A stretch of 25,342 nt of DNA from a virus (taxonomy: Duplodnaviria; Caudoviricetes), in the IMG/VR virus record IMGVR_UViG_3300046115_000144, positions 1 through 25,342 of that record; one strand, written 5' to 3'. Shown in pieces: positions 6,401-25,262 of this stretch (positions are counted from its first letter, which is position 1; each line of letters opens with the position of its first letter). Under the pieces are notes generated by a model, which was given only the letters and a program-made list of their open reading frames with translations, made no database searches and was not told where the DNA came from. The position numbers were made by a program, and so were the translations under genes.

Positions 6401-9400
6401 CTCTGCGTCCAGCAAGCCGAGCCGTTCGTTAGCGTGACGGATCGCGTTTAGGTGCCTAAACGCCTGCGCGACAATGCTCCGGCCTTCCTCATCCCGCGTT
6501 CCTGCGGGCGTCTCGTCATGCCAGCGCGATAGCGCAGCCCACACCTCAGAGGGATTGCCACCATTCGGCATGGCGCTCTTTTCACCGTCCGGCAGCCAGC
6601 GGCTAGCTTCGTCGAGGATATTCCTCTGCGCTTGCTCGGCCTGCTTAATCTGATCCAGCAGGCTGGCAACCTTTGCCTCGTCTCGAACCCCACCCTTGAG
6701 CGCGCCAGCCTTGCGATCCTTGTCGATGGCCTTGCTGACGGCTGCTTTCTGTTTCTTACTGAGGGCCTTAAAGCTCGTCAGCGCGGGCGTTGCCTCTATC
6801 TCCTGGTCGAGGAGCCCCCGTTGCGTGCCAAGCTTTGAGTAGCGGGCACGCATCTCCACCGGAATGATCTTGCCGGCGTCTACGCGATTACGAATGAGGT
6901 CAGAGATCTGATCCAGCCCATCCTTGACGGAGACCCGGCCGACCGGCGGGGTCAGCCACTTCTCGCCCAGCTCTGGGTTCCACGCAAACAAGCGCCTGTT
7001 GATTTCATCGCGCAGTTCGTATAGCGCAGCGTCAGCCTCCTCATGTCGCTTCGTGAGATCAGCAAGCTTTGCTTGATGCTCAGACTCGAACATCGTCTTG
7101 GCGTACGCATTGCGTACCGAATCCCGGATGCTTTGCGCCCACTGCGGCTGGAACCGATCCAGGACGCCTACGGCTTTACCATCTCCATCCTTCTGAATCG
7201 AGGTGCCGGTGTTGACGATGGGGTTGGGCTCGTTGGGGAAATGGGAGTCGGTGAAAGTTGCCACTCGATCTTCGAATTGGGTCTCGAAGTTGAATGGCCG
7301 TCCGGGCAGATGCAGCACGCTCTCCCGGTTCGTGCGGTTGCCGCGGTCGATCTGGTACTCAGGCCAGCGCAGCGGACTGAACAGCTTCTTTGCGGCCTCC
7401 ATGTCGTGGACGACCATGTCGCCAGACGCTTCCGTCCAGCCGTTATCACTGCGGCCCGCGCGTCGCTGCACCAACAGCGTCCCATCACCCTGCGGCGAAA
7501 TCTCCGCGATGATGGTGCCCTCGCGATTGGCAACAAGCGTGGTGGCGGGGTCATCAGGATCGTTGCCGAACGTCACCCCGTCCGTATCATTGCGATAGAC
7601 CGCCTCCTTCACCGATACTCGGTTCTCTTCTAGGTGTTTGACGATCTCGACCTTGGTGACGCTCCTCTTGCCCTCCAGGAACTTGTCGAGACCGGTCGCT
7701 GCAAGCTCGGCCTCCTTGACGCCGGTGCCCTTGGTGAGCATCGAGCGCATCTGCTCAGGCGTTCCCTTGGCCTGCTTCAGTGCCTTGGCCGCCTCCAAAG
7801 CTTGGCTGTAGAACCCAAGCTGGTCGAACGCCCGCCTCTGTACGGCCCCGTCGCTCTCCCCCAGTACCGCCTTCGCCGGGAAGATATCCGGATACATCGG
7901 CCCTTCCACCGGAACGGCCTTGGCATCCGACAGCTTGATGTTCTTCGATCTGAGCGTGCCGTGCGCCCGCTCCTTGAAGTAGCCCTGTTGGTGCGCATGC
8001 ATCAGCGCGTAGTAGAGATAGTCCGGGAGGATGTTGTGGTTCCTGACGAGCACGCCGATATGCTCCGGCGAGAACTCGCGCGTCACCGACCCGACCTTGT
8101 CGTCCGAGCCCTTCCTGACGATCCAGAAGTCGGCCTCGGGGAAGTTGGTGCGCATGTCGGCATGTATGCCGAGCTCGCGGCCGTAGGTGAGGTGCTTATC
8201 CGCACCCTTGGGCGCCTGGCGCTCGCCCGCCACCGCCTTCATCGGCGCGGTATCGGGCTCCCTGCGCCAGAACCCGTCCTTGCCCTCCCGGAACCCCAGG
8301 GAGGCGTAGAACATGCCCAAACGGGCATCGTCGACGCCCTTGGCCCCCTCCACGATCAGCGAGACGGCCTTGCCCGCCTCGTCGGCGGCAGCCACGAACC
8401 GCTGCATGGCCGAGCGCGCGGCCCCGAGGTTGCGGGCCTCCGGGAAGGTGCGCAGGTACTCCAGATACACGCCCCCGTCGGGCTCGACGCTGTAGCGGAT
8501 GCGGGTCGGGCCGTACTCGACAACGCGCTCGCCTCCCCCCGGAGCAAAGTCGACAACGGGGCTGTCGAGCTCCCCCGCCACCGCCTTCAGCGGGGCGGCG
8601 TCTTCTTGACTTTGAACGAGTTGGCGTCTAAAGCTGTGCCACGAAGGCCCCCGGTTGCGCGGCGGTACTTGGCTGATTAGGGCCAGGATTTCACCCGCGC
8701 GCTCAGGGGCCTTCTGCCATTTCAGGGCCTCTGGACCCTGCTGGTGCAAAGCGGCGGACAACCGGGCGATGGTATCGCTGCGCATCTGATTGAAGGCCGT
8801 CATGATCTTGAGACGGCCGCGGTCAGCCTCCCTGATGCCGATGACGACGACGCCGTCATTCTCCTTGCCCAGGCGTATCAACCGGACACCGGTTCCTCCG
8901 TCGAATTGAGCGTACGTCGGCGCGGCAAGTACATGGGCAATGTGAGCCGCGATCTTCTCGTGCGTCGACAAGTCCCCGTGCCGTGCCGGATCGTCCTTGC
9001 CGGTGCGTTTCTCCCAGATGTGCTGCAGGTTGGCGCGCAGTTCAGCCTGGGGCAGGCCAGCCCAGGCGAGCTCGGTGGGCGCGAACACGCCTTGCGGCAG
9101 CCGCGTCGCCTCGGCGATCATCAGCTGGCGGCGCTCGAGCTGGGATTGTAGCGCCGCGATATGCTCAGGATCGGCATCGGCCGCCGCCTTCAGGCGGGCG
9201 CTCTTGTCGGCGATGGCGTCGGCCTGCTGGCGATAGGCCTTGACATGATCGGGCGGCCCTTCGGCGATGCGGATACCCGGCACCTCGATCGTCGGAACTG
9301 CAGGCTCGACGTCTTTGGCTGCCGGCGCCGCTGACGACTCCCCGGGCTTGCGACCCGGCAGCGACAGGGTCTTGCGCTCCGACAGCTCGGGCGCCTCGAG

Positions 9401-12370: not shown

Positions 12371-12383
12371 CTCAATCCCAGGG

Positions 12384-15300
12384 CTAGGGCTTGGTCGAGG
12401 TGAGCCGCCCGCGTTGCGCGGCGGCAGGCAGGCGCGCGCGACGCTCGGCCTTGGTCAGGCCATGGCGGGCCTCGAGGTCGAAGGCCTCGCGCTCCTGCGT
12501 TCGGTCAGCGTAGGGGCCCGCAGTGTCGAACCCGAAGCGCTCCTTGTTCTGGATGTGATGCTGGGTCTCGTGCAGCAAGGTTTTCAGGAAATCGTCCTCG
12601 CTCTTGATGCGATCGAGGTTGACGCCGACCACCCTGCCCTTCCCATCGCCGAAGGCGGCCCCGGAGGCCGCGCTCTTACCGGCAGCACGGAATATGACTT
12701 TCACGTCCTTGAGGTCGGGATAGGCCGCGAACAGGTCCGGGTGGTCCAGTATGTGACCCAGCGTCGTCTCCCCCTCCTGCTCCGGCAACTTGGTTGCGCG
12801 CGCGGCGCTATCGTCGATCTCGTTGCGCCACTTGTCGTCCTGCCCCCTGAACCAGCCGGTCTTCTCCCAGATCTCGCGCGCGGGGGTGTCGATGGTCGTC
12901 AGCTCCTTGGCCTCGGCCAGCGCCGCCTTGTCTGCGGTAGCCGAGCCCTCGCCAGCGAACGTGGTCTTCTCGATGGGAGGACCGGACCCTTCCTCGGCCA
13001 GCCGCCCGGGCCCGCCGAGGTTCATCCGCCCGCCCATGTCCGTCATGCTGGGTGGGCTAAGCACCGGCTCGACATACCCCAGGTACAGATCGGGACGCCG
13101 CTTGCGCAGCAGCGGCTCCAGCTGGTTGACGTCGAGCACGTAGCGCTTGCCCATGCCGTTCTCGACCCACTGCGGGTCGGCGCCCTGAGGGTCGCCGATC
13201 GCCATCCAGTATTGGCCTGGACCGACTGTGACCATGGTGGCGCGGCGCAGCACGCCCATCGACAGGGGATTGCCCGCTCCCGTTGCGGGACCGGCCCCGA
13301 ACGCATCGAGGAGGTCGCCATCCCTCAGCGTCGACAGGATGTCGCCAAAGCCTGCTTGCTTCATGTTGCTCGGCACCACCACGGGGCTGCCGCGGCCGAT
13401 GCCGAAGAGGCCGGGGCTCTGGTAGTAGAGCCCACCGTAGGTCGTGCCCTTGCTGACGTGCTCGCCCAAGGCCTCCTTCAGGCCCTGCTTCCACAGCTCC
13501 GCGTCGAATTTGGTGATGTTGCCCTTGCGGAAGGCGCGGGTCTCGAAGATTTCGTCGGCCGTGGCGATGACGGCCGCGTCGTTCCCCGGCAGGGCCTGGA
13601 AGGTGGTGCCAAGGGCTGCGCGCGCGGTCGTCTTGTGCTCGTCGCCGTCGCTACCCCCGCCGTGGATGATGGCCTTGAAGTTCTTGTCCTTCTTGAGCTC
13701 GACGGCCTGTGCCGCATCCTTGGCCGCTTGCATGGTGGCGCCGTTGTTCTTGCCGGCATCCACCGCCATGCCGCCGATCCACGCCGCGACAGGCATGTCC
13801 TTGGCGAACTCTCCCATGGCAAGCCTGGCATCCGGCCCGAAGTTGGCGACGATCCGGCCCAGCACCCCCATCATCGGCTCTCCCCCCTTGCGCACGACGT
13901 CGACGAGCGCATCCTTCTCGTTCTTGGTGAAGAAGATGGGGGCCTGGTTGTAGTAGGCGCCGACCTGGCGCGCCTGCTCGGCCCGCTTCTGCAGGGCCGC
14001 GTCGTCGTTGAACTTCTCGAGCAGATCATCGACGGGGACGATGCCGACACGGTTGGCCCACGTCAGGGGATCGGTGTTGATTTGCGTGCGCATGTTGGCG
14101 AGAGTGGCCTCGACGTGCTTGAGGCGCTTCTGCGCCGCCTCCGTCATACCCTCGCGTAAGACGCGCTGGCGCTCGTCGCCCACCATCTTCTCCAGCTGCA
14201 TCGGCGGCATCTTGTTGAGCTGGGAGGTCAGCTCCGCCAACCCCAAGGTGGACACAAAGTGCGCGTTCAGCGTCGGGTCGTTGAACTCCTTGACCCGGCG
14301 CGCCAGGTCCTCGAGCATCGGCGCCGGCAGCGCATAGCCGTTCTGGGCCACGGCCTCGAACTTGGTGATCTCCTTCTCCATCCCGGCCAGCAGCGCCTTG
14401 CGCCGCGTCTCGAGCTGCCCGTGGATGGCTTTGCGCTCGGCAAGCGAGAGATTCTGGTAGGGCCCGTCGTAGGTCGCCTCACCCTTCTCCTCGCCGTCCC
14501 ACAGGGGCTTCATCGCGCCCTCGGTGACCACGGTGGTGGGCTTGCCCTCGGCGGATGCCGGGGGTTTGCCCGTTGGCACTGCATCCCCCGCCGAAGGCAA
14601 CACCGCGCCGCCCCCGGGGACCGGAGGCGTAGCGAACTCGCGCGCATAGTCCAGCACGCTCGAGCGATTGCGGTCAGCCGAATTGGTCCGGCCGCCTGAT
14701 TCGAGTGCCGCCCGTGTCGAGCCGATGCCACCCAGATGCAGCATGGCTCTCAGGCCATCCTGGGTGATGGTCACGCCGGCGACGTTCTGACCGATATACT
14801 TCTCGAGACCCGCCCGCCTGATCTCCCGATCCATTTCTCCAGCGTGCACTTCGTAGGCAGCTTCCTGCGCCTCGGGGTTGGCAAGAAACTGGTCGACCGT
14901 CTTGATGTCGGGGAAGCCTTCGATGTTGAAGCTGCCGGACCATTTGTTGCCGGACCAGCCACCGCGCGCAGACTTGTCGGTGATGTTTTCACCAGCCCCA
15001 GGCTTATAAATCCCCAGCGTCGCGAGCCGCGGCGCGCCGAACTGATAGAGACCTGCAAAGCCATCTTCGTTGATGATGTCCGCTTGCGCGGTCGACTCGC
15101 GCGCCTTCAACTTGGCGCGGAAGAAATCGCTTCCCGAGCGGTCGACGGGTCGCGCTTTGCCCGGCGCGCTAACGAATAAGGTCCCGGTGACCCTGTTGAA
15201 GTCGTCGCCGGTATTGGCCCCCAGCGCCTCGGCAAGACCTGCGGTCTTGTCGGCGCTCTTCAAGAACTCCTTGCGCACCCGGTATTTGTCGGCGGGGTTC

Positions 15301-15884
15301 ATGGGCGAGAGGTCGATGACGCCGAGGCCCTCGCTCTTGAAGCCCGGCAGCCGAGCCGGCGCCCCCTCGATGTCTTTGAGCGTCTTGCCCAGCGCCTCGC
15401 CCAGGCTCTCCTTCTCGTAGCGATCGCGCTCGACGACCTGGTAGGTCAACGCCTTGGTGGAGAGCCCCCCGCCGATCTCCAGGAGCTTGGTGTCGACCTT
15501 CTGCCTGAGACGGTTGGGGAAATTGCCGCCCTCCTTGCCGAAGAACTCGCGCGCGCGCTCGCCGTAGCCCTGATACCAGCCGTCCTGGAAGCCGTCGCCG
15601 CCGGGCTGTATGGTGCGCTTGTGCTCCTCATAGGCCTGCTCCTCGGCACGCCGGAACTCGATGAGACGCTTGGTGGCCTCGTAGTCCTCCTGCTCCTCGG
15701 CCTTCTTGATCAAGGCCTCGCCGAACTCGCCGATGCCCTTGCCGAGCCCGGCCAGCGACTTGGACGCGGAAGCCGCCTCCGTGCCGATGACGGAGGCGTC
15801 CGCACGCGCAAGCCCGCGCGGCGGCTGCACCGCGGGAACGGGCGGCAGCCCACCCAGATCGTCGCGTGAGGGAAGCCTTGCCAT
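12384..15884 (-). CDS. internal virion protein, 1166 aa, with lysozyme-fold/lytic transglycosylase domain and C-terminal LPD23 metallopeptidase domain
   Basis: Muralytic motifs ARES...GFAGLYQFG...FLANPEAQE...MLHLGG...DRNRSSVLDY (~14635-15130). LPD23 motifs IWEKTGWFRGQDDKWRNEIDD, LDHPDLFAAYPDL, LLHETQHHIQ, EREAF (~12420-12960). Confidence 0.85.
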   Translation of the reverse strand: MARLPSRDDLGGLPPVPAVQPPRGLARADASVIGTEAASASKSLAGLGKGIGEFGEALIKKAEEQEDYEATKRLIEFRRAEEQAYEEHKRTIQPGGDGFQDGWYQGYGERAREFFGKEGGNFPNRLRQKVDTKLLEIGGGLSTKALTYQVVERDRYEKESLGEALGKTLKDIEGAPARLPGFKSEGLGVIDLSPMNPADKYRVRKEFLKSADKTAGLAEALGANTGDDFNRVTGTLFVSAPGKARPVDRSGSDFFRAKLKARESTAQADIINEDGFAGLYQFGAPRLATLGIYKPGAGENITDKSARGGWSGNKWSGSFNIEGFPDIKTVDQFLANPEAQEAAYEVHAGEMDREIRRAGLEKYIGQNVAGVTITQDGLRAMLHLGGIGSTRAALESGGRTNSADRNRSSVLDYAREFATPPVPGGGAVLPSAGDAVPTGKPPASAEGKPTTVVTEGAMKPLWDGEEKGEATYDGPYQNLSLAERKAIHGQLETRRKALLAGMEKEITKFEAVAQNGYALPAPMLEDLARRVKEFNDPTLNAHFVSTLGLAELTSQLNKMPPMQLEKMVGDERQRVLREGMTEAAQKRLKHVEATLANMRTQINTDPLTWANRVGIVPVDDLLEKFNDDAALQKRAEQARQVGAYYNQAPIFFTKNEKDALVDVVRKGGEPMMGVLGRIVANFGPDARLAMGEFAKDMPVAAWIGGMAVDAGKNNGATMQAAKDAAQAVELKKDKNFKAIIHGGGSDGDEHKTTARAALGTTFQALPGNDAAVIATADEIFETRAFRKGNITKFDAELWKQGLKEALGEHVSKGTTYGGLYYQSPGLFGIGRGSPVVVPSNMKQAGFGDILSTLRDGDLLDAFGAGPATGAGNPLSMGVLRRATMVTVGPGQYWMAIGDPQGADPQWVENGMGKRYVLDVNQLEPLLRKRRPDLYLGYVEPVLSPPSMTDMGGRMNLGGPGRLAEEGSGPPIEKTTFAGEGSATADKAALAEAKELTTIDTPAREIWEKTGWFRGQDDKWRNEIDDSAARATKLPEQEGETTLGHILDHPDLFAAYPDLKDVKVIFRAAGKSAASGAAFGDGKGRVVGVNLDRIKSEDDFLKTLLHETQHHIQNKERFGFDTAGPYADRTQEREAFDLEARHGLTKAERRARLPAAAQRGRLTSTKP

Positions 15885-15890
15885 TTCAGG

Positions 15891-16568
15891 TTATCCGAAA
15901 CGATAGGGGCTGGCGGACGCCGACGTGCCCGACGGCGTGCCCGACGGCGTGCCGCCGAAGCGCAGCGCCAGATTAGAGACCGCGCCGAGGATGGTGGACG
16001 CCGCATCGATGCGGCTGGCCTTGCGCGCGTAGCGCCCGGCGATGCGGTCGGCCGCAGCCTCATAGCGGGCGCCGCCGGCCATGGCGTCGAAGGTGCGCGC
16101 CTGCGCCTCGGCGCCGGCACGCTTGATGGTGCCGCCAGCAACGGCACGCTCCTCCTGCAAGGTGCCGTAGCCGGAGATGTCCTCGGCGAGCTTTAGGCTC
16201 GACGCATCCGTCGCCGAGAACCCGGACGCGGCGCCGCGCGCCTGCAGGGTCGACAGCGCCAGCTCCTTCTTGTGCTTGAGCTCGCCGGCGTCGCTCTGGG
16301 CCTGGGCCAGCATGTTCTTGCCGGACTCACGCTCGAGCCGCCCCTTCTCGTCGAGCTGCAGGGCCTCGTATTCCCGCGAGCGGGCCTTGGACTCGTAGGC
16401 CTGCTCCTTCGCCTTGCCGGCACCGATGGTGCCGAGCGCACTGACGCCACCTCCCGCGATGGCGGCGCTAGCGCCGATCACCGAAAGCGTGACGGGGTCC
16501 CAGCATGGCTGGAACGAGAGGCATCCGCCCCGCCAGCCTCCAAGGCCCCAGGCTGCTGGATTAAGCAT
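15891..16568 (-). CDS. small internal virion/ejection protein (T7 gp14-like position), 225 aa
   Basis: ATG overlaps the TGA of the upstream gene (TGATG). DPVTL followed by a Gly/Ala hydrophobic helix, a coiled coil and a GAASG motif, typical of small ejection proteins. Confidence 0.75.
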   Translation of the reverse strand: MLNPAAWGLGGWRGGCLSFQPCWDPVTLSVIGASAAIAGGGVSALGTIGAGKAKEQAYESKARSREYEALQLDEKGRLERESGKNMLAQAQSDAGELKHKKELALSTLQARGAASGFSATDASSLKLAEDISGYGTLQEERAVAGGTIKRAGAEAQARTFDAMAGGARYEAAADRIAGRYARKASRIDAASTILGAVSNLALRFGGTPSGTPSGTSASASPYRFG

Positions 16569-16936
16569 CAGGCATCCCCGCTCCAGCGGTAGAAGTGTTG
16601 CGATCGCTCATCGAACTCGAAACCGAGGCTCGCCAGCCACAAGCCGGCGCGCGGCTCGAGCGGTGAGATCTCCGCGTAGATGGTGCGGATGCCACCGGCC
16701 CGCGCGGCAGCCAAGAACCTCTTGGCGGCACGGGCAATCGTCATCTTGTAGGGACGCAGCTCCGGGTTGACATCGCAGAACGCATACCAGCGCCCCTGCT
16801 TCAGGCCGATGCCGCCAAAGCCCACCATCACCCCGTCAATCTCGGCGACGAGGGCGCGGATGGTCGGCTTACTCGGCAGGTCATGGCAGAAGGCAGCGAT
16901 GTCCTCAGGTGTCGCAGGACGCACCACCACAACCAT
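16568..16936 (-). CDS. GNAT-fold virion-associated protein (T7 gp13-like position), 122 aa; start revised to ATG 16936
   Basis: GGAG RBS before MVVVVRPATPEDI; GNAT-type VRPAT.ED start and WLASLGF end; located between nozzle and ejection genes. Confidence 0.8.
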   Translation of the reverse strand: MVVVVRPATPEDIAAFCHDLPSKPTIRALVAEIDGVMVGFGGIGLKQGRWYAFCDVNPELRPYKMTIARAAKRFLAAARAGGIRTIYAEISPLEPRAGLWLASLGFEFDERSQHFYRWSGDA

Positions 16937-17036: not shown

Positions 17037-20000
17037 TTATTTCTCGTGCGTGACAACCGTCGGGATCGCCGCCAACACCGTCGCAGGCCTCGGTGACTTC
17101 CCGCGCAACACGAGCCTCGCGTCGGGGTGCCAGCGACTCGGTATGGGGACGGCGACCATATCGAGCGTCTGGTGAATTTGGTTGTCGTCGACAACGGCAC
17201 CCTCGATCATCCGAGGCAAGTCATCCAGGTGCCCAGTATCAGATCCGTAGCGCAAACCACGGTTGTGTGTCGCAAAGAGGAGCAAACCGAGCTGCGGCGC
17301 CCGCTTCTCTTGGGCCAACGCACTGCCCAATTCAGCAGCGTAGGCGAGCTTGGAACTCTCCCACGTTGCCTTATAGGGAAGGCCGGCGATCGAATGATGC
17401 ACCGCGACGCCGAGAGTAATATCGCCCCCGGTATCGGGCGTCCAACGAACCTGCACCCCATCGACATCCGGCGACCGATCGACACCAGGAATAGACCCCG
17501 TGTCATCGCTCCACACGACGACCGACTCACCCACCAGATGCGGAGCAATGTCGACAAGCGCGGCGTTTTGCCCAGTGTCCGTGTAGCTCTTGGCGCAGTC
17601 CATCAGCCAGCCCGTCAACCCGCTATCGCCCGTGCACTCGCTCTCCTTGGCCCACTTTTCCAGGTAGCGCTTGGTCGACCCATTGATCGTGCGCCGCACA
17701 TGATAGTAGACCGCGTCCTCGACGGTCCCGGGCAGGCTCATAACCTTCTCGACCGCACCCGATGTTCCCGTGTCCGTCTGCCACATCGACCAGGCCACGA
17801 CCTCATCGCCCGGCTCATAGGTCAGGATGGCAACCCGCCCATCCCCGAGGCAGGCGTGGATTCTGGTGTCGGGCTGCCGCTGCACGGCAATAGACACCAC
17901 GCCCGCCTCCAGCAGATCCGGCACCAGCCGCGTCAGGTCGGCCGCCTCATAGTCCCCCGACGTGCTCCCCCCACCCCCGGCACCCGCCACCAGCAGCCGT
18001 TGCCCGGAACGCTGCACGTAGGCGGCCTTGGTATCGATCTTGACGGCCCGCAGGCTCGCCGCCCCCTGGGTCGAGAACGGCGTCGAGGCGTTGCAGTTGG
18101 TCGGCGTCAGCGGCTCGTCGAGCGAGGACGACCGCGCCGTGAGCTCGGCCCCGGCCGTGCCGATGATGAGCCGCAACAGCGACATCAGGAAGCGGATGGA
18201 ATCGACCGGTCCCGAGCCCAATGTCTTGACGATGGGGGCGGCATCCCCGATCGTGGCATCGTCGAAGTTCTCGTAGTCGTCCGAGACGCTCATGAACAGC
18301 TGCCCACCCCGGGCGTGCGCGAGCCTTCCGCCATGCAGGGCAACGGCCGCCGGGAAGGAGCGCGCCGCCGACCAGAAGCCCTCCTGCCAGTTCTCGGAAG
18401 CGCCTGTGGCGGAGAAGCGCGACAACACCTCGATGCTGACAGAGACGTTGGAGGCAAAATCGGTGACGCGGGCAATGCCGGTGATGCCGCCGCCCTGATA
18501 GGTGAGGACCACGATGGCCACGCCCGAGCTGTAGGCGGAGATGCGCGCCCGATACCAGGTCTGCACGTTGTCGTCGGTGTCGAAGATGGTGCGCGTGAAC
18601 GAGCCGGTATCGGTCGCCAGCGCATTGGCCATGAAGTTGGTGTCGACGGGATGGAAGCCGCGATCGGCCCCGTCGATCGAGCGCTCGAGCGTGATGGTGC
18701 CGGACCAAGTGCCGGTCACGCTGACGGAAACCCTGCGCTCGCCGCCGGTGCCTGTGCCGGTGTCGTTGTAGCCGTTGACCTCGATGGCGTCCGTTTTGGC
18801 CTCGACCGCGCCGAGCCGCCATTGCCCGCTCTGGCCCGTGTGGAAGATGCGCATCAGCGCACCGACATGGTCGATCGAGAAGAACGGAATATCGCTCGCC
18901 AAGGTGGTGTTGCCGAACAACGCAGCCGGCGACAGCTTGGCGCCAGAAGAGGGCGATGGCAGGAACGGCCCGTTGTCGGGAGCATAGTCGACCACCGACC
19001 AGGAGCGCCCCGTGCCCCGGCGCTCGATCTTGGATGGCCTGACCCCATCGCTATCGGCATAGACCACATCGGCCGACTGGTCGTAGCGGACGTTGTCGAG
19101 AGCGTTGGCCTCCCACGGCGCCGTGACCTCGACCGTACCGGAATCGCCGACGGCGAGCGAGCCGACGATGCGGTTCATCACCTCGTCGGTCTGCAGGGTG
19201 ACCCAGAAATAGGGCGTCGTCGGCGTCAGGGCGAGGTTGTGGTAGCCGGTGCCGAGCTCAGTCTCGGAGATGTAGTCGTCGTCCCTCTGGGTGGAGCCCA
19301 CCCGCAGCGTCACGGGACCGCGCTCGACATAGAGGCTGAGCGAATGCTCGGTGCCCGTATCGGACACGACAACCCGCTTCTCGCGCCTGGCGAGCGAGCC
19401 GATGGCGGTGGCATTCAAGGTCAGCTTGCCGCCGGACACCAGGATCTGCTGCGCCGAGGACGAGAAGATCTCGAACATCTCGATTTCCGAGACGATCAGT
19501 TCGGTGTCGCCGTCGACAGCCGAAACATTGAGCCGCCAGAAGCGGTGCGCAGTGACCGTGCCGGTGTCGCCCTCGGCCGTGGTGTAGGTGCGCTTCTCAC
19601 CGGCCGCCCAGCCGGTAATGTTCGACTTGGTCTGCTCGACGGTCCAGACGCTGCCGTTGTCGCTCGACTCCAACGTCCAGGCCTTTGGTGCGTTGTTGGT
19701 GTTGACGGCGCTGGGGCCGGCCCGGATCGAGTATCTGGCAATCGACTTGGTGTTGCTGGCCCCGAAGTCGACAGCCCACGTGCTCGGCAAGGAGCTGACA
19801 TTGCTCGAGCCCGTATCCTGCCAGCCGCTGTTGTTGTTGTCATCGGCCGCCTTCCATGCGGCCCGGTTGCCGCCGAGGAGGGCAACGGGCTGATCCTCGC
19901 TGTCCATCGGAACAAACGGGCTGCCACCGAGACCATCGCTGTTGTGGACGACATTCTCCGAGGAGGCCGAGACCGTCACCCCGTTGGTCGTCGCCCCCAC

Positions 20001-20420
20001 CATGGTGGGGATGGCATCGACCGAGGATATCAGCCGGCCGGTAAAGGCCCCACCCGCCGAGGTATCGGCCCAGCCGGTGTCGGTCAGCGACAGCGTGGTA
20101 TTGACCGCAGGCCGGCCCAGCAGCGAGAGCGCATGCGCATCGCTGCCGATCCACAGGCGCATCTTCTGGTGCGTCAGCTCGATGAGCGCCACGTCGTCGG
20201 TCGAGGCGATGAACTCCAGGTACTGGGCGCCGGTATCGTTGAGGGACGAGCCGAACCACTTGGTGCCAGGACGAATGGTGAGCGCGCCCTGGGTCTTAGG
20301 CAGCCAGTTGGTGAACACCTCGGCCGACAGCCTGGTGCGGTCGAGGTCGACGCGCGCCAGCGCCTTGGGTGAGAGCAATCCGCGGTTGAATGCCAAAAAC
20401 GGCACATTGGCGCGCGCCAT
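17037..20420 (-). CDS. tail nozzle / tail tubular protein B (T7 gp12, P22 gp10-like), 1127 aa, with inserted discoidin (F5/8 type C) domain
   Basis: N-terminal AFNRGLLSP...R.DL...NW....G....RPGT, YDQSADVVY, YAPDNGPFL, FPAAVALHGGRL, S.SDDYENF and AGLPY motifs. GAGGG RBS. Follows the adaptor gene. Confidence 0.9.
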   Translation of the reverse strand: MARANVPFLAFNRGLLSPKALARVDLDRTRLSAEVFTNWLPKTQGALTIRPGTKWFGSSLNDTGAQYLEFIASTDDVALIELTHQKMRLWIGSDAHALSLLGRPAVNTTLSLTDTGWADTSAGGAFTGRLISSVDAIPTMVGATTNGVTVSASSENVVHNSDGLGGSPFVPMDSEDQPVALLGGNRAAWKAADDNNNSGWQDTGSSNVSSLPSTWAVDFGASNTKSIARYSIRAGPSAVNTNNAPKAWTLESSDNGSVWTVEQTKSNITGWAAGEKRTYTTAEGDTGTVTAHRFWRLNVSAVDGDTELIVSEIEMFEIFSSSAQQILVSGGKLTLNATAIGSLARREKRVVVSDTGTEHSLSLYVERGPVTLRVGSTQRDDDYISETELGTGYHNLALTPTTPYFWVTLQTDEVMNRIVGSLAVGDSGTVEVTAPWEANALDNVRYDQSADVVYADSDGVRPSKIERRGTGRSWSVVDYAPDNGPFLPSPSSGAKLSPAALFGNTTLASDIPFFSIDHVGALMRIFHTGQSGQWRLGAVEAKTDAIEVNGYNDTGTGTGGERRVSVSVTGTWSGTITLERSIDGADRGFHPVDTNFMANALATDTGSFTRTIFDTDDNVQTWYRARISAYSSGVAIVVLTYQGGGITGIARVTDFASNVSVSIEVLSRFSATGASENWQEGFWSAARSFPAAVALHGGRLAHARGGQLFMSVSDDYENFDDATIGDAAPIVKTLGSGPVDSIRFLMSLLRLIIGTAGAELTARSSSLDEPLTPTNCNASTPFSTQGAASLRAVKIDTKAAYVQRSGQRLLVAGAGGGGSTSGDYEAADLTRLVPDLLEAGVVSIAVQRQPDTRIHACLGDGRVAILTYEPGDEVVAWSMWQTDTGTSGAVEKVMSLPGTVEDAVYYHVRRTINGSTKRYLEKWAKESECTGDSGLTGWLMDCAKSYTDTGQNAALVDIAPHLVGESVVVWSDDTGSIPGVDRSPDVDGVQVRWTPDTGGDITLGVAVHHSIAGLPYKATWESSKLAYAAELGSALAQEKRAPQLGLLLFATHNRGLRYGSDTGHLDDLPRMIEGAVVDDNQIHQTLDMVAVPIPSRWHPDARLVLRGKSPRPATVLAAIPTVVTHEK

Positions 20421-20430
20421 TTTTATTCCC

Positions 20431-21069
20431 TCAACCCGTCAACGAGCCGCGCGAGCCGCGATCGCGCGAGCCACCGCCACCGCGCGCCGTCGTCCAGGAG
20501 CTGGGCGGGGGGAACTTCGGATTGGGCTCGTTCATGCTGTCGTGGTTCTTGGCCGTCTTGCGTGCCTTGTCGCGCCGCTTCTCGACGCGCTCCAGCATCG
20601 ACTCACTCGACGTCAGCTTGAGGCACACGCGGCTCGCCAGCTCCAGCTGCACAAAGCGCGTGAAATTGGCCGTCCATCGCGTGAGATCAAGCCCAAGCCC
20701 CGTGTCGTTCGACACATAGCGGATGTAGATCGGGCTGGAGTCCGCCGACCAGAAGTTGCTGTCGTCGTAGTAGTGCAGCAGCGGAAAGGCGAAGTTCTCA
20801 TCCGCCGACACCCCGTGCGTCCTGACCCAATCCGACGGCTTGGCGAACACCTCGGGGTAGCCGAACTCGGGCGTGACCCCTGTGTCCGACACGGCCTTGA
20901 TGGTCTCCATGGCGAAGTTCCAGGAGCCCGCCGCCAGGCACTCGGCCACCACCTGATCGTAGGCGGCGACGAGCTCGCGCCCCGCCTCCACGGCCTCGCC
21001 GGTATCGCTCAAGCGACGATGGCCGATCTCGACGAGAGAGCCGTTGAAGACGGCGAGCTTGGTGGTCAT
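20431..21069 (-). CDS. tail adaptor / tail tubular protein A (T7 gp11-like), 212 aa; start revised to ATG 21069
   Basis: MTTKLAVFNGSLVEIG...WNFA...P.FGY...F.KPSDWVR...IRYVS...F...V...LA; AAGGA RBS; directly upstream of the nozzle. Confidence 0.85.
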   Translation of the reverse strand: MTTKLAVFNGSLVEIGHRRLSDTGEAVEAGRELVAAYDQVVAECLAAGSWNFAMETIKAVSDTGVTPEFGYPEVFAKPSDWVRTHGVSADENFAFPLLHYYDDSNFWSADSSPIYIRYVSNDTGLGLDLTRWTANFTRFVQLELASRVCLKLTSSESMLERVEKRRDKARKTAKNHDSMNEPNPKFPPPSSWTTARGGGGSRDRGSRGSLTG

Positions 21070-21071
21070 GG

Positions 21072-21089
21072 TCAGTTCCTTTGGAACTG

Positions 21090-21090
<1 letters not shown>
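21072..21090 (-). promoter_or_regulatory. hairpin occluding the adaptor ribosome-binding site
   Basis: TCAGTTCC-AAA-GGAACTGA, a perfect 8-bp stem ending 2 nt before the ATG; the AAGGA SD lies across the loop and 3' arm. Confidence 0.55.
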
Positions 21091-21182
<92 letters not shown>

Positions 21183-21190
<8 letters not shown>

Positions 21191-21665
21191 TCTCGAGCGG
21201 CATCGGCCTCTTGGCCTTGAGATCGTAAGGGCATGGCGCACCCGTCTTGGGATCGCAGGCCGGGCCGACGCAGTCGACGACGAGACCATCGGCAACACCA
21301 TGTGTGTTGAAGCGCACGCCGGTGACGATGAGGCGCGCAAAAAAGCGGTGATCGGTGGTGCGCACCTCAAGCTCGGTGCCGAGGTAGTCGCCGCCGTTGG
21401 CCTTGGCGGATGACTGCAGCATGGGGGCGATCGAGGCCCAGAAGCCCGGCTCGAAGGTCTCCTCCAGCGTCCAGTCTGCCGGCAGCAGGACCTGCTGCGG
21501 CTCGGAGAAGTGGCCCGTGGGCTTGAAGTTGCTGATCGACAGCTGCCGCTTCTTGCGCGGCACGGCAACAGCGGGGGCTGCAGCGACGGCAGCCGCAGCG
21601 CTTGGCGCGCTCGGAATAGGTTTGGATTCGGACTTGACGGGAGCAACAGTTGCGGCTTGCGCCAT
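21183..21665 (-). CDS. hypothetical phage protein, 160 aa
   Basis: AAGGA RBS; Ala/Pro-rich N-terminus then a globular region (TLEETFEPGFWASIA...LEVRT.D..F.ARL.V); lies between head and neck genes. Confidence 0.8.
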
Positions 21666-21691
21666 AGGGTTTCCTTGGATTGTGGGTTGAC

Positions 21692-21724
21692 AAACAGAAA
21701 AGAGCCGGCCCGAAAGCCGGCTCT
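21692..21724 (-). terminator. Rho-independent terminator after the capsid/decoration genes
   Basis: AGAGCCGGC-TTTCGG-GCCGGCTCT stem with UUCG-type loop followed by TTTCTGTTT; same position as T7 T-phi. Confidence 0.85.
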
Positions 21725-21739
21725 CTCCAGTGGCATGCC

Positions 21740-22018
21740 TCAGCCGGTATCGCCGATGAGGGTTCCAGGTCCGGTCGTGCCCTGCGTGGCACCGGTATCC
21801 TGCACATAGCCGGGAGCAAACGCGGCAGCCCTCACGACCTTGGTGACACCGCCACCGCTGGACATGATCAGGTCGCCCGAGTCCACGCCCATGTCGCCGG
21901 CATTGGCGAAGAACCCGGCCACATCCAACACCGTACCGGTGTCATGATAGGACCAGATCTTGAAGCCAGTCATGCCCTGCGCCATGAGCTTCAGCTTATC
22001 CTTGGAATAGGTAGCCAT
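21740..22018 (-). CDS. probable head decoration/cement protein, 92 aa (MATYSKDKLKLMAQG...IGDTG); start revised to ATG 22018
   Basis: GGAGG RBS right after the capsid stop; co-transcribed with the capsid before the terminator; W.Y...GFFANA.D.G...GDLI pattern typical of small post-capsid proteins. Confidence 0.75.
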   Translation of the reverse strand: MATYSKDKLKLMAQGMTGFKIWSYHDTGTVLDVAGFFANAGDMGVDSGDLIMSSGGGVTKVVRAAAFAPGYVQDTGATQGTTGPGTLIGDTG

Positions 22019-22032
22019 GTGGTTTCCCTCCC

Positions 22033-22744
22033 TTAGATAGCCGACGCGTCGTGCAGGAACTGCACGATGCCGGACTGCTGGAGCATCTTGGAACCGGTGA
22101 ACGACGATGCGCGAGCATACGAGTAGTCCTGCTCGTCGTCGTAGCCGATGGCGATGTTGAGGCCTTCGCCCTGGTCGAATGCCGATCCCACCGCATCTCT
22201 GTGGTAGAAGTAGCACTTCTCCGAGGACGTCCCGACACCCGTCAGATTGGGATGGAAGATCCAGTTGAAGCCTGCCCAGCGCATGGTGCGGCGAGCGGGA
22301 CCCGTCAGGAACTTCTGCTCCACGTAGTCGATCTTCGTGGCTTCGGGCAGCTGCATGATGTAGCCGCGCACCGCAGGGGTGGCGACGGCCCACATCTTGT
22401 CGACCTCCTCGACGGGAACCTCGTTCTCGCCGAGAGTTACGATGGCCTTCGCGGCAGCCGACAATGCGAAGGTCGCGGCAGCACCGAGGTTGTTGGTCGC
22501 CGTATCGAGCTGAGCGATGACGTCAGCATCGAGCCGGCGGTTCAGAACCTTACGCGTGGTCTGCTGCATCAGGGCGCGCTGGTCGCCCTGCGACTGGAAG
22601 ATGTTGAACCTGGTCTTTCGGACCAGATCATGCCACTCAACCAGAGTCGCGGTCGTCTGGGTCAAACTGTCCGCGCGAGCGGGAATGAGACCGTTGATAC
22701 CGCGCGTGACAGCCGCGGCGCCGCCGCTGCCTGCCACGAGGAAA
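22033..22744 (-). CDS. major capsid protein, exon 2; spliced CDS = join(23786..23907, 22033..22744), 277 aa
   Basis: T-TTC-CTC-GTG-GCA joins exon 1 in frame to give IKGNQAVFLVAGSGGAAAVTRG. Capsid-like motifs LNRRLDADVI, W.GFNWIFHP, YFYHRDAVG, GSKMLQQSGIV. Confidence 0.9.
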
Positions 22745-23785
22745 CAAACGCATATTCATGCGTTTAGACTGTCGCTTACCCCGTGTCGTCTTTTGCGCCA
22801 GTAGTGCATTTGACAAAGTCCATGTCCGTGCACTCGACGGTCACAACCTTGTATTTCGCAAAAACGACGATCAGGGCCTGGGATACTCAGTCGTTGCCGA
22901 TGATGGTGAAGAATCGCGTCTATCTTATCGCGTTTGAACCGAGAATGCTTGGCGAGATTTGGAAGGAACTGCTCTGCAAACGAGCGGTTCTGATAGCCTA
23001 GCATTCTTCTCCAGTGTAACACTGGCGATCGATGATCCTGATATATGCTTCCACCAAACGCATGGAGCAAAAAATCGAGGACGCAGCGATCGTTAACGTG
23101 AGCCACGGCGCTTACTGCTATTCTCCACCGCGTCACTCCGTCTTTGGTCTTGGACGAGCGGATATAGCTGCCATCCCCATCAAGATACCCGGCGAGCCAC
23201 GCCCATGTGGGGTGGTTCTTCGGTTTGATGGGACCGGCATTGGCGCGCCGTGATTCCTTGCTTTGCGCGATAAGCGCTTCCCTTACTCCCGCCGATATCT
23301 GGCCGCCACGTTTTTCACGCCAAACATCCAGCAGCCACTGCCAGTGTTTAGCTTTGATCACCATGTGTTTGATCAAACGTGGGAGAAGCATCTCCAGATC
23401 AGCGCGCTTGGACACTTGCCAAACGTTGATGTTGTGCGTCTGCCTTGTTGGTTTGTCGCCGATTACTACCTCCCTTGGGAGGATTACGCTTGAGCGACCC
23501 ATTCCCGTAAGATTTGGTAGCTTTGCGACAAATCCTTCTTTATCTATTTGCTCTGAAGCGCATAGATAAAGAAGCAGACCTACATTGCAGTCACCTGACT
23601 GTGTTTTATTGGCAAAATGGAACGATAGAGAACCGTCCGCATCTAGCAATCCAGCCAGGTACTTGACCAGCGATTCGTTCACAATCTCAACACCTTTTGT
23701 TGCGGTTGAGAAGCATCTTTCGTCGGGTTGCCTTCTATCTTACAGAAGGTTTTCCCGTTATTCAATCCCAGTTACGCGGCCATCG
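22745..23785 (-). mobile_element. group I self-splicing intron (1041 nt) carrying a homing endonuclease
   Basis: P1 GCGGU/GCCGC with U.G at the 5' splice site; P3 CUGGGAU (23765-23771) / AUCCCAG (22878-22884); P AAUAACGGGAAA and Q GGCAACCCGACG around the P5 stem CCUUCU/AGAAGG; P7 GACUG (22888-22892) / CAGUC (22767-22771); P9 AAACGCAU-GAAU-AUGCGUUU then terminal G at 22745. Visibly lower GC than the flanks. Confidence 0.92.
22756..23682 (-). CDS. intron-encoded double-motif LAGLIDADG homing endonuclease with C-terminal Zn-finger, 308 aa
   Basis: YLAGLLDADGS and WLAGYLDGDGS motifs; C-terminal CEIQGCDRRVHGHGLCQMHY; GTG start with AGGTG SD. Confidence 0.92.
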   Translation of the reverse strand: MNESLVKYLAGLLDADGSLSFHFANKTQSGDCNVGLLLYLCASEQIDKEGFVAKLPNLTGMGRSSVILPREVVIGDKPTRQTHNINVWQVSKRADLEMLLPRLIKHMVIKAKHWQWLLDVWREKRGGQISAGVREALIAQSKESRRANAGPIKPKNHPTWAWLAGYLDGDGSYIRSSKTKDGVTRWRIAVSAVAHVNDRCVLDFLLHAFGGSIYQDHRSPVLHWRRMLGYQNRSFAEQFLPNLAKHSRFKRDKIDAILHHHRQRLSIPGPDRRFCEIQGCDRRVHGHGLCQMHYWRKRRHGVSDSLNA

Positions 23786-23907
23786 ACCGCCTGGTTGCCC
23801 TTGATCACCGCCTCTGTGACGGTGGTCTGGCGCAACCAGCTCATACCCTCCTCGAACTCACTGACCAGTTCCTTTCGGTACTGGATGACTGGTGCACTTT
23901 CTGCCAT
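23786..23907 (-). CDS. major capsid protein, exon 1 (MAESAPVIQYRKELVSEFEEGMSWLRQTTVTEAVIKGNQA + GT)
   Basis: AGGAG RBS and ATG at 23907; 40 codons + 2 nt; the unspliced frame stops shortly inside the intron. Not in the ORF track. Confidence 0.9.
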
Positions 23908-24128
23908 GTTGGCATCTCCTAAGTGCGTTTGGGGATGCCGGTCGTTCTGGTTCTCCTTTCACGATACGCTCGCGGGTTGACCCACCAGAGTGAGGGCCGC
24001 TCACGCATCCAAAGGCGCTTCACGAACGGTTGGGTGCCCGCGGAACAAAGTCCGAGGGCGTGGAACGCTGACGGTAAGCGCTAGGCGCCGGCGAGCCGGG
24101 TTGGCCAGGCGTCGACCGTCTCTACAAA
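23908..24128 (-). promoter_or_regulatory. structured 220-nt capsid leader, including an SD-sequestering hairpin (23911-23939)
   Basis: GGCAUCCCC-loop-GGAGAUGCC pairs over the AGGAG SD; further GC-rich stems upstream. Confidence 0.45.
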
Positions 24129-25262
24129 TCAGGCCCGTTGCCGGGACTGAATCTTTTGCTGGGCCTCGATGAGCTCACGCTCGCGGGCCTGCATGGCATA
24201 GTCCTTGTTGTAGGCGGGCCTGTTCTCGCGCCGGGCCTTGTCGATGGCCTTGAGCTCGGCATCGATCGAAAGACCCGTCTGGTTGCCGTCCTCGACCACG
24301 GTTGCGGCCGGGTTGACCTCGCTGGCGAGGCTGACCAGGAAGCGCACCATGTCGGGATCGTTGCCGATCAGCTTGCCGTCGGCCGTGCGCCCGCCCATCA
24401 ATCTGGCATAGAGCGACTTGTCGTTCTTGACATCCACCCCACCAGGAGCCGTGGCAAACAGGCTCGAAATGGCGTTGGTCTTGCGCTTGAAGGCCGGACC
24501 GAACTCCTCCTTGAGGGCAGCTTCGGACTCGCGCCGGTAGGTGTCGTCGGCCTCGTCGAGGGCAGCGGCTGCCTCTTCCTGCTGCTTGAGGTTCCAGTTC
24601 ACCGCCTTGTTGACGAAGTCCTGCGCAGTAGTGGCTCCGTTGACGGCTTGGAGGAAGCTCGACACCAGCGGCTTGTCGGTATCGCCGAGGACGGCCCCGC
24701 TCTCGAGCTTGATCGCGCCCATCAGCTCCTCGGGCTTCTCGGTCCAGCCGAGAGCCTTGGCAAAGGCCGTGACCTCCTCGGGCTTGGCGTCCTTGCCGGG
24801 GATCTTGACGAGCCCGCCGGCGGAGAACTTGCCCTCCAGCTCCCGGTACATGCCCGCTAGTGCGGCGGGGTCGGTGATGCGCTCGAGGCGTTTAAGCTCC
24901 TTGGCCAGCACCTTCTTGTCGCCGGCAACCAGATGCTCGGCTGCCTTCTGGCGCCAGTCCTCGGGCCAGTAGGGCTTGTGCGCCTTGTCGGCTGCCTCCT
25001 GCTTAGCCTTGTCCTCGGCGTTTACGTCGCCGCCGGTGGCAATGGTCTTCTTGCCCTCCGCTCCCACGGCTTTATCGTCGGCGCCTTCGTCGCCACCGGC
25101 GACAGTCTTAGCGCCCTTGCCCGCCTCGGCTCCCTTGCCTGCGGCGTCATCCGTCGTCGAGGTCGTTGCGTCGTCGGCCTCCCCGTCTTTTACTTCAAGC
25201 GCCTCTTCAGCCCCCAGCACTGCCAAGTCCTCCTGTGTAAACGTCGGTTTCTCGTCCTGCAT
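24129..25262 (-). CDS. capsid assembly/scaffolding protein (T7 gp9-like position), 377 aa
   Basis: Acidic low-complexity N-terminus, WPEDWR, Y.ELE.K, L..E.G..F and C-terminal helix; directly upstream of the capsid gene. Confidence 0.8.
   Translation of the reverse strand: MQDEKPTFTQEDLAVLGAEEALEVKDGEADDATTSTTDDAAGKGAEAGKGAKTVAGGDEGADDKAVGAEGKKTIATGGDVNAEDKAKQEAADKAHKPYWPEDWRQKAAEHLVAGDKKVLAKELKRLERITDPAALAGMYRELEGKFSAGGLVKIPGKDAKPEEVTAFAKALGWTEKPEELMGAIKLESGAVLGDTDKPLVSSFLQAVNGATTAQDFVNKAVNWNLKQQEEAAAALDEADDTYRRESEAALKEEFGPAFKRKTNAISSLFATAPGGVDVKNDKSLYARLMGGRTADGKLIGNDPDMVRFLVSLASEVNPAATVVEDGNQTGLSIDAELKAIDKARRENRPAYNKDYAMQARERELIEAQQKIQSRQRA

Follow-up and report, generated by a model that had tools for sequence, protein, structure and literature searches.

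A clade-specific Asp-Thr-Gly tripeptide in outer virion proteins of uncultured tailed phages, a candidate signal for O-linked modification

The DTG tripeptide in a T7-type morphogenesis module

The IMG/VR record IMGVR_UViG_3300046115_000144, from an uncultured Caudoviricetes phage, comprises 25,342 nt (hereafter the window), in which the genes for a tail nozzle, a tail adaptor and a protein of 92 amino acids (aa) are rich in codons for the tripeptide Asp-Thr-Gly (DTG). All genes of the window lie on the minus strand and are ordered as in a T7-type morphogenesis module, namely scaffold, capsid, the 92-aa protein, a 160-aa protein, adaptor, nozzle, a GNAT-like protein and ejection or internal virion proteins of 225, 1166 and 3958 aa. 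The nozzle and the adaptor were identified as T7-like (gp12 and gp11, respectively) by the matches of their family profiles, and the predicted fold of the nozzle matches solved nozzles: in a Foldseek search with its AlphaFold2 model, Carin-1 was the best match (8ck1_A, E 1.9e-21), followed by LME-1, Kp9 and T7 gp12. This model is a monomer of middling confidence (mean pLDDT, predicted local distance difference test, 66.6), built from a 35-sequence alignment. The genes concerned and their DTG and Asp-Ser-Gly (DSG) codons are located as follows.

17037..20420, minus strand: tail nozzle, 1127 aa (PHROG 376 tail protein, E 2.4e-118)
20229-20237, 20073-20081, 19809-19817, 19560-19568, 19353-19361 and 18756-18764, minus strand: nozzle DTG codons 1-6
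18603-18611, 17766-17774, 17571-17579, 17496-17504, 17427-17435 and 17232-17240, minus strand: nozzle DTG codons 7-12
19137-19145 and 17619-17627, minus strand: nozzle DSG codons
20431..21069, minus strand: tail adaptor, 212 aa (PHROG 394 tail protein, E 1.5e-33)
20998-21006, 20878-20886 and 20698-20706, minus strand: adaptor DTG codons
21740..22018, minus strand: 92-aa virion-module protein, labelled a putative decoration protein in the preliminary description, whose sole family match is PHROG 18004 (function unknown)
21935-21943, 21791-21799 and 21743-21751, minus strand: DTG codons of the 92-aa protein, the last of them at the C-terminus
21875-21883, minus strand: DSG codon of the 92-aa protein

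The nozzle contains 12 DTG and 2 DSG, while its composition predicts 0.72 DTG (Poisson 2e-11), and none of 20,000 shuffles of the nozzle reached 12 DTG. The adaptor has 3 DTG against 0.08 expected, and the 92-aa protein, whose chain ends in GDTG, has 3 DTG and 1 DSG, with 0.17 DTG expected. DTG is about 17 to 40 times above chance in the three proteins, and in each of them taken separately it is the most over-represented tripeptide. In contrast, the other seven proteins of the window (about 6,300 aa) hold 1 DTG, compared with about 1.6 expected. A preliminary description of this DNA had reported these DTG and DSG counts, the single DTG in the scaffold, capsid, 160-aa, GNAT-like and three ejection proteins, and a compositional expectation of roughly one DTG in the nozzle; all of these figures were reproduced, and the tripeptide enrichment test per protein that it had suggested ranks DTG first in each of the three proteins.

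On the coding strand there are 21 copies of the DNA pattern GAYACNGG, compared with a single copy on the opposite strand. All 18 copies within the three tagged genes are in frame 0, and their codons differ at third positions only. Because the pattern is found in frame only and the codons vary synonymously, the signal lies at the protein level, as the preliminary description had argued from the varied codons. A DNA-level repeat or a methylation-site origin was ruled out on the same grounds. The remaining genes of the window serve as a contrast to the tagged ones.

21183..21665, minus strand: 160-aa protein, between the 92-aa gene and the adaptor gene, no DTG
494..16933, minus strand: GNAT-like gene and three ejection or internal virion genes (3958, 1166 and 225 aa), 1 DTG in about 5,470 aa
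4310..4318, minus strand: lone DTG outside the tagged proteins, residue 2685 of the 3958-aa ejection protein (0.75 expected)
22036..25262, minus strand: capsid (two coding pieces) and scaffold, no DTG
24129-25262, minus strand: scaffold gene

Conservation of the tag and its clade boundary

Among the matches listed from a large protein collection, 120 nozzle homologues sharing 56-74% identity were compared. Every one of these 120 listed homologues has between 10 and 20 DTG (mean 15.1; about 0.8 expected), and about 16 DTG sites are positionally fixed across them. At the fixed sites, D and G are found in 120/120 of those listed or nearly so, and the middle residue is T, less often S, with nothing else at the best sites. 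The columns beside the sites vary freely; the preliminary description had called the flanking residues unrelated. The DNG at residue 254 and the ATG at residue 671 of the window nozzle are DTG in most relatives. Additional DTGs, some of them within inserted domains, are confined to some members; sites are therefore still being gained and lost.

In the nozzle model, the T-G of 13 of the 14 D[ST]G sites is predicted to be coil that ends a strand or forms the tip of a hairpin, whereas the site at 948-950 is in a predicted strand. Three sites fall within short low-confidence loops of the model (284-288, 551-558 and 929-940). In the fibre proteins of relatives, DTG recurs where short helical segments meet.

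An alignment-based scan of IMG/VR retrieved 52 loci (a viral-contig scan with the single protein retrieved none). The IMG/VR nozzles of at least 50% identity (about 1,100 aa) have 9-22 DTG where most of the gene is covered, whereas 11 full-length nozzles of a sister clade (39-51% identity, about 900 aa) have 0-2, as many as expected by chance. At the DTG columns the sister-clade nozzles show variable polar loops (SDQAA, NDAVA, GGT-L, VSS-GS) or gaps, and the gaps fall where the DTG clade has inserted DTG. Among named phages, no close relative was detected by megablast, and tblastn gave distant nozzle relatives only. A CBM32/F5-F8 type C-like (galactose-binding-like) domain is inserted in the window nozzle at residues about 190-320 (about 19460-19850) and is not found in sister-clade nozzles; some relatives' nozzles additionally carry a laminin-G-like insert (PF13385), by which they reach about 1,320 aa.

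The same split was observed in three other families. Thirty distinct adaptors from the clade were compared: 24 of them keep DTG at every one of the three sites, and the first site is missing in the other six, two of which are cut at the N-terminus and one of which has 5 DTG in a longer called frame. None of eight sister-clade adaptors has DTG, the corresponding positions reading DAG, DTS, DPD, SPS and similar. Clade members of the 92-aa family retain W-x-Y-x-DTG and VQDTGATQ, while its two clearest sister-type homologues have 0 DTG. In the 287-aa family, which is encoded in relatives, the chain ends in '...DR-V' in DTG-free homologues versus '...RDTG[LTD]' in the clade. Relative to DTG-free homologues, DTG arose through substitutions and small insertions. 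These DTG-free homologues rule out a generic trait of the nozzle or adaptor fold; the DTG frequency is far from equal among nozzle and adaptor homologues (0-2 in sister nozzles, 0 in sister adaptors), equality being the outcome that the preliminary description had named as telling against its own reading.

We then compared five complete or near-complete DTG relatives (79-101 kb) with four DTG-free relatives. Each of the five has 26-58 DTG versus about 7 expected, almost all in the nozzle, adaptor, 92-aa, 287-aa, 105-144-aa and fibre-like proteins, and the tag thus occupies at least six unrelated late protein families. Among the fibres, one of 911 aa has 35 DTG, one of 386 aa has 10 and one of 471 aa has 9. 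Across loci, DTG is absent from the portal (0 in 28 members), the large terminase (0 in 21), the scaffold (0 in 30) and a small internal protein (0 in 34), and two capsid-region families have 1 in 23 and 1 in 24 members. The extension of the enrichment test to portal and tail fibres across whole genomes, as proposed in the preliminary description, thereby separates a DTG-free portal from DTG-dense fibres.

The strictness of the motif was assessed in 22 tagged proteins (10,104 aa) from the five complete relatives, with observed and expected counts of 183 and 8.8 for DTG and of 16 and 7.0 for DSG. Changes at the outer positions are avoided: ETG was observed 0 times (3.3 expected), NTG once (4.0), DTA 4 times (8.6), DTS 3 times (6.6), DTV 3 times (6.4) and DTL 3 times (5.9). 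The flanks of the 183 DTG sites are weakly biased, the commonest residues at position -2 being F (11%) and D (11%). Outside the tagged proteins, the five proteomes contain 13 DTG versus 27.2 expected (P 0.002; 49th lowest of 2,756 tripeptides), and the four DTG-free relatives together have 21 versus 19.4 expected. The Asp-box, a beta-hairpin with the consensus S-x-D-x-G-x-T-W, was considered and rejected: its Ser falls at position -2, where F and D lead at the 183 sites, and its T-W follows the Gly, but at none of positions +1 to +4 does W rank in the top six. In the window, only the DNG at nozzle residue 254 (SSDNGSVW) resembles an Asp-box.

As to hosts, of the two clades only the DTG-free sister clade was found as prophages, in Mesorhizobium, Pseudaminobacter and Bauldia and in one metagenome-assembled genome labelled Flavobacteriaceae, and one protein of the relative G001 is listed in NCBI under Aquamicrobium sp. 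G001 (L058-L061) is 79.8 kb long with terminal repeats and encodes an integrase, a GcrA-like regulator, an ISL3 transposase, an N6/N4 DNA methylase and an RNA ligase. There are hints that G001 is a temperate phage of Hyphomicrobiales, and the hosts of the DTG phages are probably Gram-negative Hyphomicrobiales.

Several further features of the window were recorded. The major capsid gene is split on the minus strand into 23907-23788 (residues 1-40) and 22743-22036 (residues 42-277), and the 1,044 nt between the pieces hold an open reading frame for a LAGLIDADG-type endonuclease (22756-23682). Both capsid pieces and the endonuclease frame share one reading frame, but a simple intein is ruled out by a stop at 22756-22758. 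No Rfam family matched anywhere in the window, and no intron model matched in the capsid insert, which probably represents a so far unrecognised intron that carries a homing endonuclease. The capsid gene is uninterrupted in the relatives G002 and G004. The capsid family of the relatives has 18 DSG among 24 members, probably at one conserved site near residue 45 (FLVGDSGG in G002, capsid 52472-53305); the window capsid reads AGSGG at that position, exactly at the junction with the endonuclease insert. The 3958-aa ejection protein (494-12370, minus strand) contains the tripeptide KAV 15 times versus 1.6 expected; it also carries LPD23 and, at its C-terminal end, a helix-turn-helix region. The 1166-aa ejection protein (12384-15884, minus strand) has a lysozyme-like stretch (PHROG matches), together with LPD23 and DUF3920 near its C-terminus, including an HExxH-like 'HETQHH'.

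Enzyme genes that travel with the tag

In all five complete relatives, a block of enzyme genes (the cassette) lies between the fibre genes and the large terminase gene. The presence of these genes was scored by tblastn independently of called open reading frames; calling the longest frames can pick antisense frames in GC-rich DNA. Four of the families, namely a 246-aa glycosyltransferase (GT), a 242-aa protein, a Methyltransf_25 protein and a P-loop protein, were found in 5/5 DTG genomes, 0/4 DTG-free genomes and 0/5 DTG-free prophage loci. A fifth, an FkbM-type methyltransferase, was found in 4/5, 0/4 and 0/5, respectively. The co-occurrence of DTG-rich homologues with particular enzyme genes, which the preliminary description had put forward as a check, was thus borne out among these genomes. 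Its statement that the window encodes no modifying enzyme also held, the cassette genes being known from relatives and lying outside the 25-kb window. The 246-aa family is of the GT-A type, with a match to PHROG 1962 'glycosyltransferase' (E about 1e-10) and a DxD that is invariant. By Pfam, no oligosaccharyltransferase-like gene was found in G001. The GNAT family of the window is not clade-specific, since it also occurs in one DTG-free genome; in pelagiphages, acetyltransferase genes adjoin the nozzle gene.

For the 242-aa protein, an AlphaFold2 model (pLDDT 87; predicted template-modelling score, pTM, 0.84) aligned with CstII, Cst-I and a Pasteurella sialyltransferase at Z 8.8-9.2 over 153-166 residues. 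All 25 superfamily rows had Z of at least 6.8, the next row having Z 4.4, and a Foldseek match of the model had E 7.6e-4. The protein is therefore predicted to have a GT42/MptE-like, sialyltransferase-type fold, which pyrophosphokinases share. At the sequence level, Pfam gave three weak matches, none at cutoff and the best with E 0.019, and its family profile gave a single match against PDB sequences (E 0.65), the GT-family profile likewise giving no meaningful match. An ESM Atlas look-up returned PF01973, MptE-like (0.83), as a weak lead.

The 242-aa gene lies directly downstream of a DTG-rich gene. On metagenome contigs with a homologue of at least 36% identity and at least 700 nt of upstream sequence, 21/21 loci have 5-43 DTG-coding motifs on the gene strand and 0-6 on the opposite strand. 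Four loci of homologues without upstream sequence have 0-1 such motifs, one locus with a homologue at 33% identity has 0, and ten loci at 24-32% have 0-6. In IMG/VR, 12 of the 13 loci of the gene are in the DTG clade; the 13th is a 25%-identical outlier without DTG. So far, the 242-aa gene is the only cassette gene confined to the DTG clade.

Cassette genes were also seen elsewhere. The IMG/VR contigs L114, L116, L118 and L119 have GT (PHROG 1962 type) and P-loop genes in late regions, with a Methyltransf_25 gene in three of the four and a 160-aa gene in three of the four. In the siphovirus-type Tetraselmis viridis virus S20 (L100 = NC_020840.1), a GT/'sialyltransferase'/methyltransferase block lies at 26950-33219, between capsid and head-closure genes.

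Interpretation and comparison with known systems

Established here are the DTG statistics, site conservation, the limits of the clade, gene content and the predicted folds, whereas the existence of a modification is inferred. We consider it somewhat more probable than the sum of other explanations that DTG, a clade-specific tag in outer virion proteins, is a recognition signal for O-linked modification of Thr, most likely glycosylation. This reading fits best because the motif is strictly D-[T>S]-G and so keeps a hydroxyl residue, sits in loops and at chain ends of unrelated outer proteins, is scarce elsewhere and is co-inherited with transferase-like genes. A phage-encoded transferase would recognise DTG on outer virion proteins and O-modify its Thr, most probably with a sugar. 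The best candidate for the enzyme that reads DTG may be the sialyltransferase-like 242-aa protein, whose gene invariably adjoins a DTG-rich one. Building or trimming of the attached group might then fall to the GT-A transferases, the methyltransferases and the P-loop protein. A more detailed scheme, which we offer as a tentative proposal with the balance tilted against it, is that a clade of temperate phages runs its own cytoplasmic, sequon-directed O-glycosylation, in which the 242-aa enzyme would read DTG on folded tail, adaptor, fibre and head-associated proteins and start a glycan, GT-A and two methyltransferases would extend it, and the outward-facing tail machinery alone would be sugar-coated. 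If true, no strict signal for protein glycosylation would have been known before in any bacterial virus. Full-text literature searches turned up no paper that describes DTG as a tag of phage proteins.

A number of observations weigh against O-modification at DTG. All DTG-bearing genomes form one clade, and therefore tag and enzymes occurring together amount to a single evolutionary event; the two may simply share one origin. The GT/Methyltransf_25/P-loop cassette (GT 35-46% identical) is also present in the unrelated phage contigs L114, L116, L118 and L119, in which there are 0 DTG in 11-17 kb and no other tripeptide is enriched, and virus S20, with a 30%-identical GT, has 4 DTG versus 4.2 expected. 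Contigs with GT homologues at no more than 35% identity likewise showed neither a DTG excess nor another enriched tripeptide. Because the cassette is present in DTG-free phages, it is not sufficient for the tag, and its enzymes could instead serve DNA hypermodification or host-surface conversion, roles for which phage GTs have been published. In the phage of the window, the cassette is deduced from relatives, none of its enzymes lying within the window, and by Pfam no nonulosonic-acid (donor-sugar) synthesis gene was found in genome G001. Thiamine pyrophosphokinase and archaeal HPPK align with the 242-aa model at Z 9.0-9.4, over fewer residues than the sialyltransferases. The positions of the nozzle sites come from the middling-confidence monomer (pLDDT 66.6), the regular spacing of DTG at fibre helix boundaries could be structural, and the depletion of DTG outside the tagged proteins is real but moderate (observed/expected 0.48). 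Of the preliminary description's proposal that D-T/S-G marks sites for modification, the clade restriction, the enzyme co-occurrence and the T/S-only middle position stand in support, while the confinement to a single clade and the cassettes without DTG count against it. The other roles named there, docking of a decorating protein or binding of a metal, draw no support from these data.

It is unlikely, in our estimation, that DTG is an unmodified structural or assembly motif (a capped turn, a fibre helix start, a subunit contact or a metal site) that the clade took up in its tail machine and to which the cassette is unrelated. The predicted position of 13 of the 14 nozzle sites at strand ends or hairpin tips would suit such a role, as would the fibre DTGs at the boundaries of short helical segments, the general tendency of Asp, hydroxyl residues and Gly to form turns, and the occurrence of the cassette without DTG in other phages. 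However, the same folds manage without DTG in the nozzle, adaptor, 92-aa and 287-aa families, and elsewhere in the proteomes of these phages DTG is scarce. Turn propensity also hardly accounts for one exact tripeptide that recurs across six unrelated folds and whose outer positions do not admit E, N, A or S, and at the free chain ends (GDTG-stop and RDTGL-stop) the motif cannot form turns. That the excess is an artefact of chance, composition or DNA-level features can be dismissed with near certainty, being refuted by the Poisson probability of 2e-11 in one protein, by the 120/120 listed homologues and by the in-frame-only pattern with synonymous codons.

Two further readings involve no sugar. 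One is that Thr or Asp receives another group, for instance a phosphate from the P-loop protein, a methyl from the FkbM or Methyltransf_25 protein, or an acyl group; this seems to us improbable. The P-loop and Methyltransf_25 genes are in 5/5 DTG and 0/4 DTG-free genomes and FkbM in 4/5 DTG genomes, a middle position restricted to T or S would suit any hydroxyl chemistry, and a motif-linked, host-enzyme-dependent methylation of a tail protein is reported for a mycobacteriophage (PMC13445384). But the P-loop and Methyltransf_25 genes accompany the GT in DTG-free phages too, the gene most tightly linked to the DTG-rich genes has a predicted glycosyltransferase-type fold, and the GNAT of the window is not clade-specific. 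Still less credible is an unmodified, multivalent adhesion motif that, like RGD, binds a component of the host surface: although DTG is limited to tail-side and fibre-type proteins, is dense in fibres and lies in loops, neither the adaptor nor the interior of the nozzle is likely to touch the host surface, and the co-inherited enzymes and the scarcity of DTG in non-virion proteins would be left unexplained.

If DTG is indeed a signal for O-linked modification, a three-residue portable tag would let a few small phage enzymes decorate chosen virion proteins in the bacterial cytoplasm, and the coating of particles would extend to phages outside the actinobacteriophages. The tag would provide a rule for predicting coated virion surfaces, which matters for how particles bind receptors, stay stable and are recognised by hosts or grazers, and a simple tag-enzyme pair for site-specific protein glycoengineering. 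The 92-aa protein, with three to four sites and a C-terminal tag, would make a convenient test substrate. Even without modification, the simultaneous arrival of a single exact tripeptide in dozens of loops across unrelated proteins would be an unusual case of convergent, proteome-level selection that calls for explanation.

Compared with T7, the window has the same fold and order of the module, with scaffold, capsid, adaptor (gp11) and nozzle (gp12) followed by three ejection proteins. Unlike the T7-type tail, the window nozzle has the CBM32/F5-F8 type C-like insert, and DTG tagging, missing from the sister clade, is a further difference.

Maf-type (MptE-like, PF01973) transferases O-glycosylate Ser/Thr of flagellin, which is made in the cytoplasm, with nonulosonic acids, and flagellin glycosylation is not known to follow a strict sequence signal. 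Flagellin O-glycosylation and GT42-type systems are treated in PMC13317340. The 242-aa protein resembles the Maf and GT42 enzymes in its predicted fold (Z about 9 to CstII, Cst-I and the Pasteurella enzyme), but it is much shorter than Maf and, unlike in Maf systems, no donor-sugar genes were found by Pfam in G001.

The O-glycosylation sequon of Bacteroidota is D-(S/T)-(A/I/L/V/M/T), and there a lipid-linked glycan is transferred en bloc to exported proteins in the periplasm, while virion proteins assemble in the cytoplasm. The DTG tag shares with this sequon an Asp directly before the hydroxyl residue and the acceptance of T or S. It differs in that its third residue is Gly, DTA, DTV and DTL being below expectation, and the candidate enzymes of the DTG phages, unlike those of Bacteroidota, are soluble GT-A and sialyltransferase-like proteins. 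The analogy to Bacteroidota drawn in the preliminary description thus keeps its Asp-hydroxyl core, but it is loose, because G follows Thr and the substrates are cytoplasmic.

In mycobacteriophages, GT genes and a methyltransferase gene reportedly lie beside the structural genes, and tail tube proteins are said to be glycosylated. No strict tripeptide signal is known in the virion glycosylation of these phages. Glycosylation of their capsid by phage-encoded GTs has been described (Freeman et al. 2023, Cell Host Microbe 31:1216, as cited in PMC13445384). The DTG phages appear similar in that the relatives, as distinct from the window itself, encode GT genes near structural genes and in that virion proteins are the proposed O-linked substrates, which would be modified in the cytoplasm. 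Unlike the mycobacteriophage system, the candidate system of the DTG phages is described here from sequence; their capsid is without DTG, and an exact tripeptide is placed instead on the tail, adaptor and fibres.

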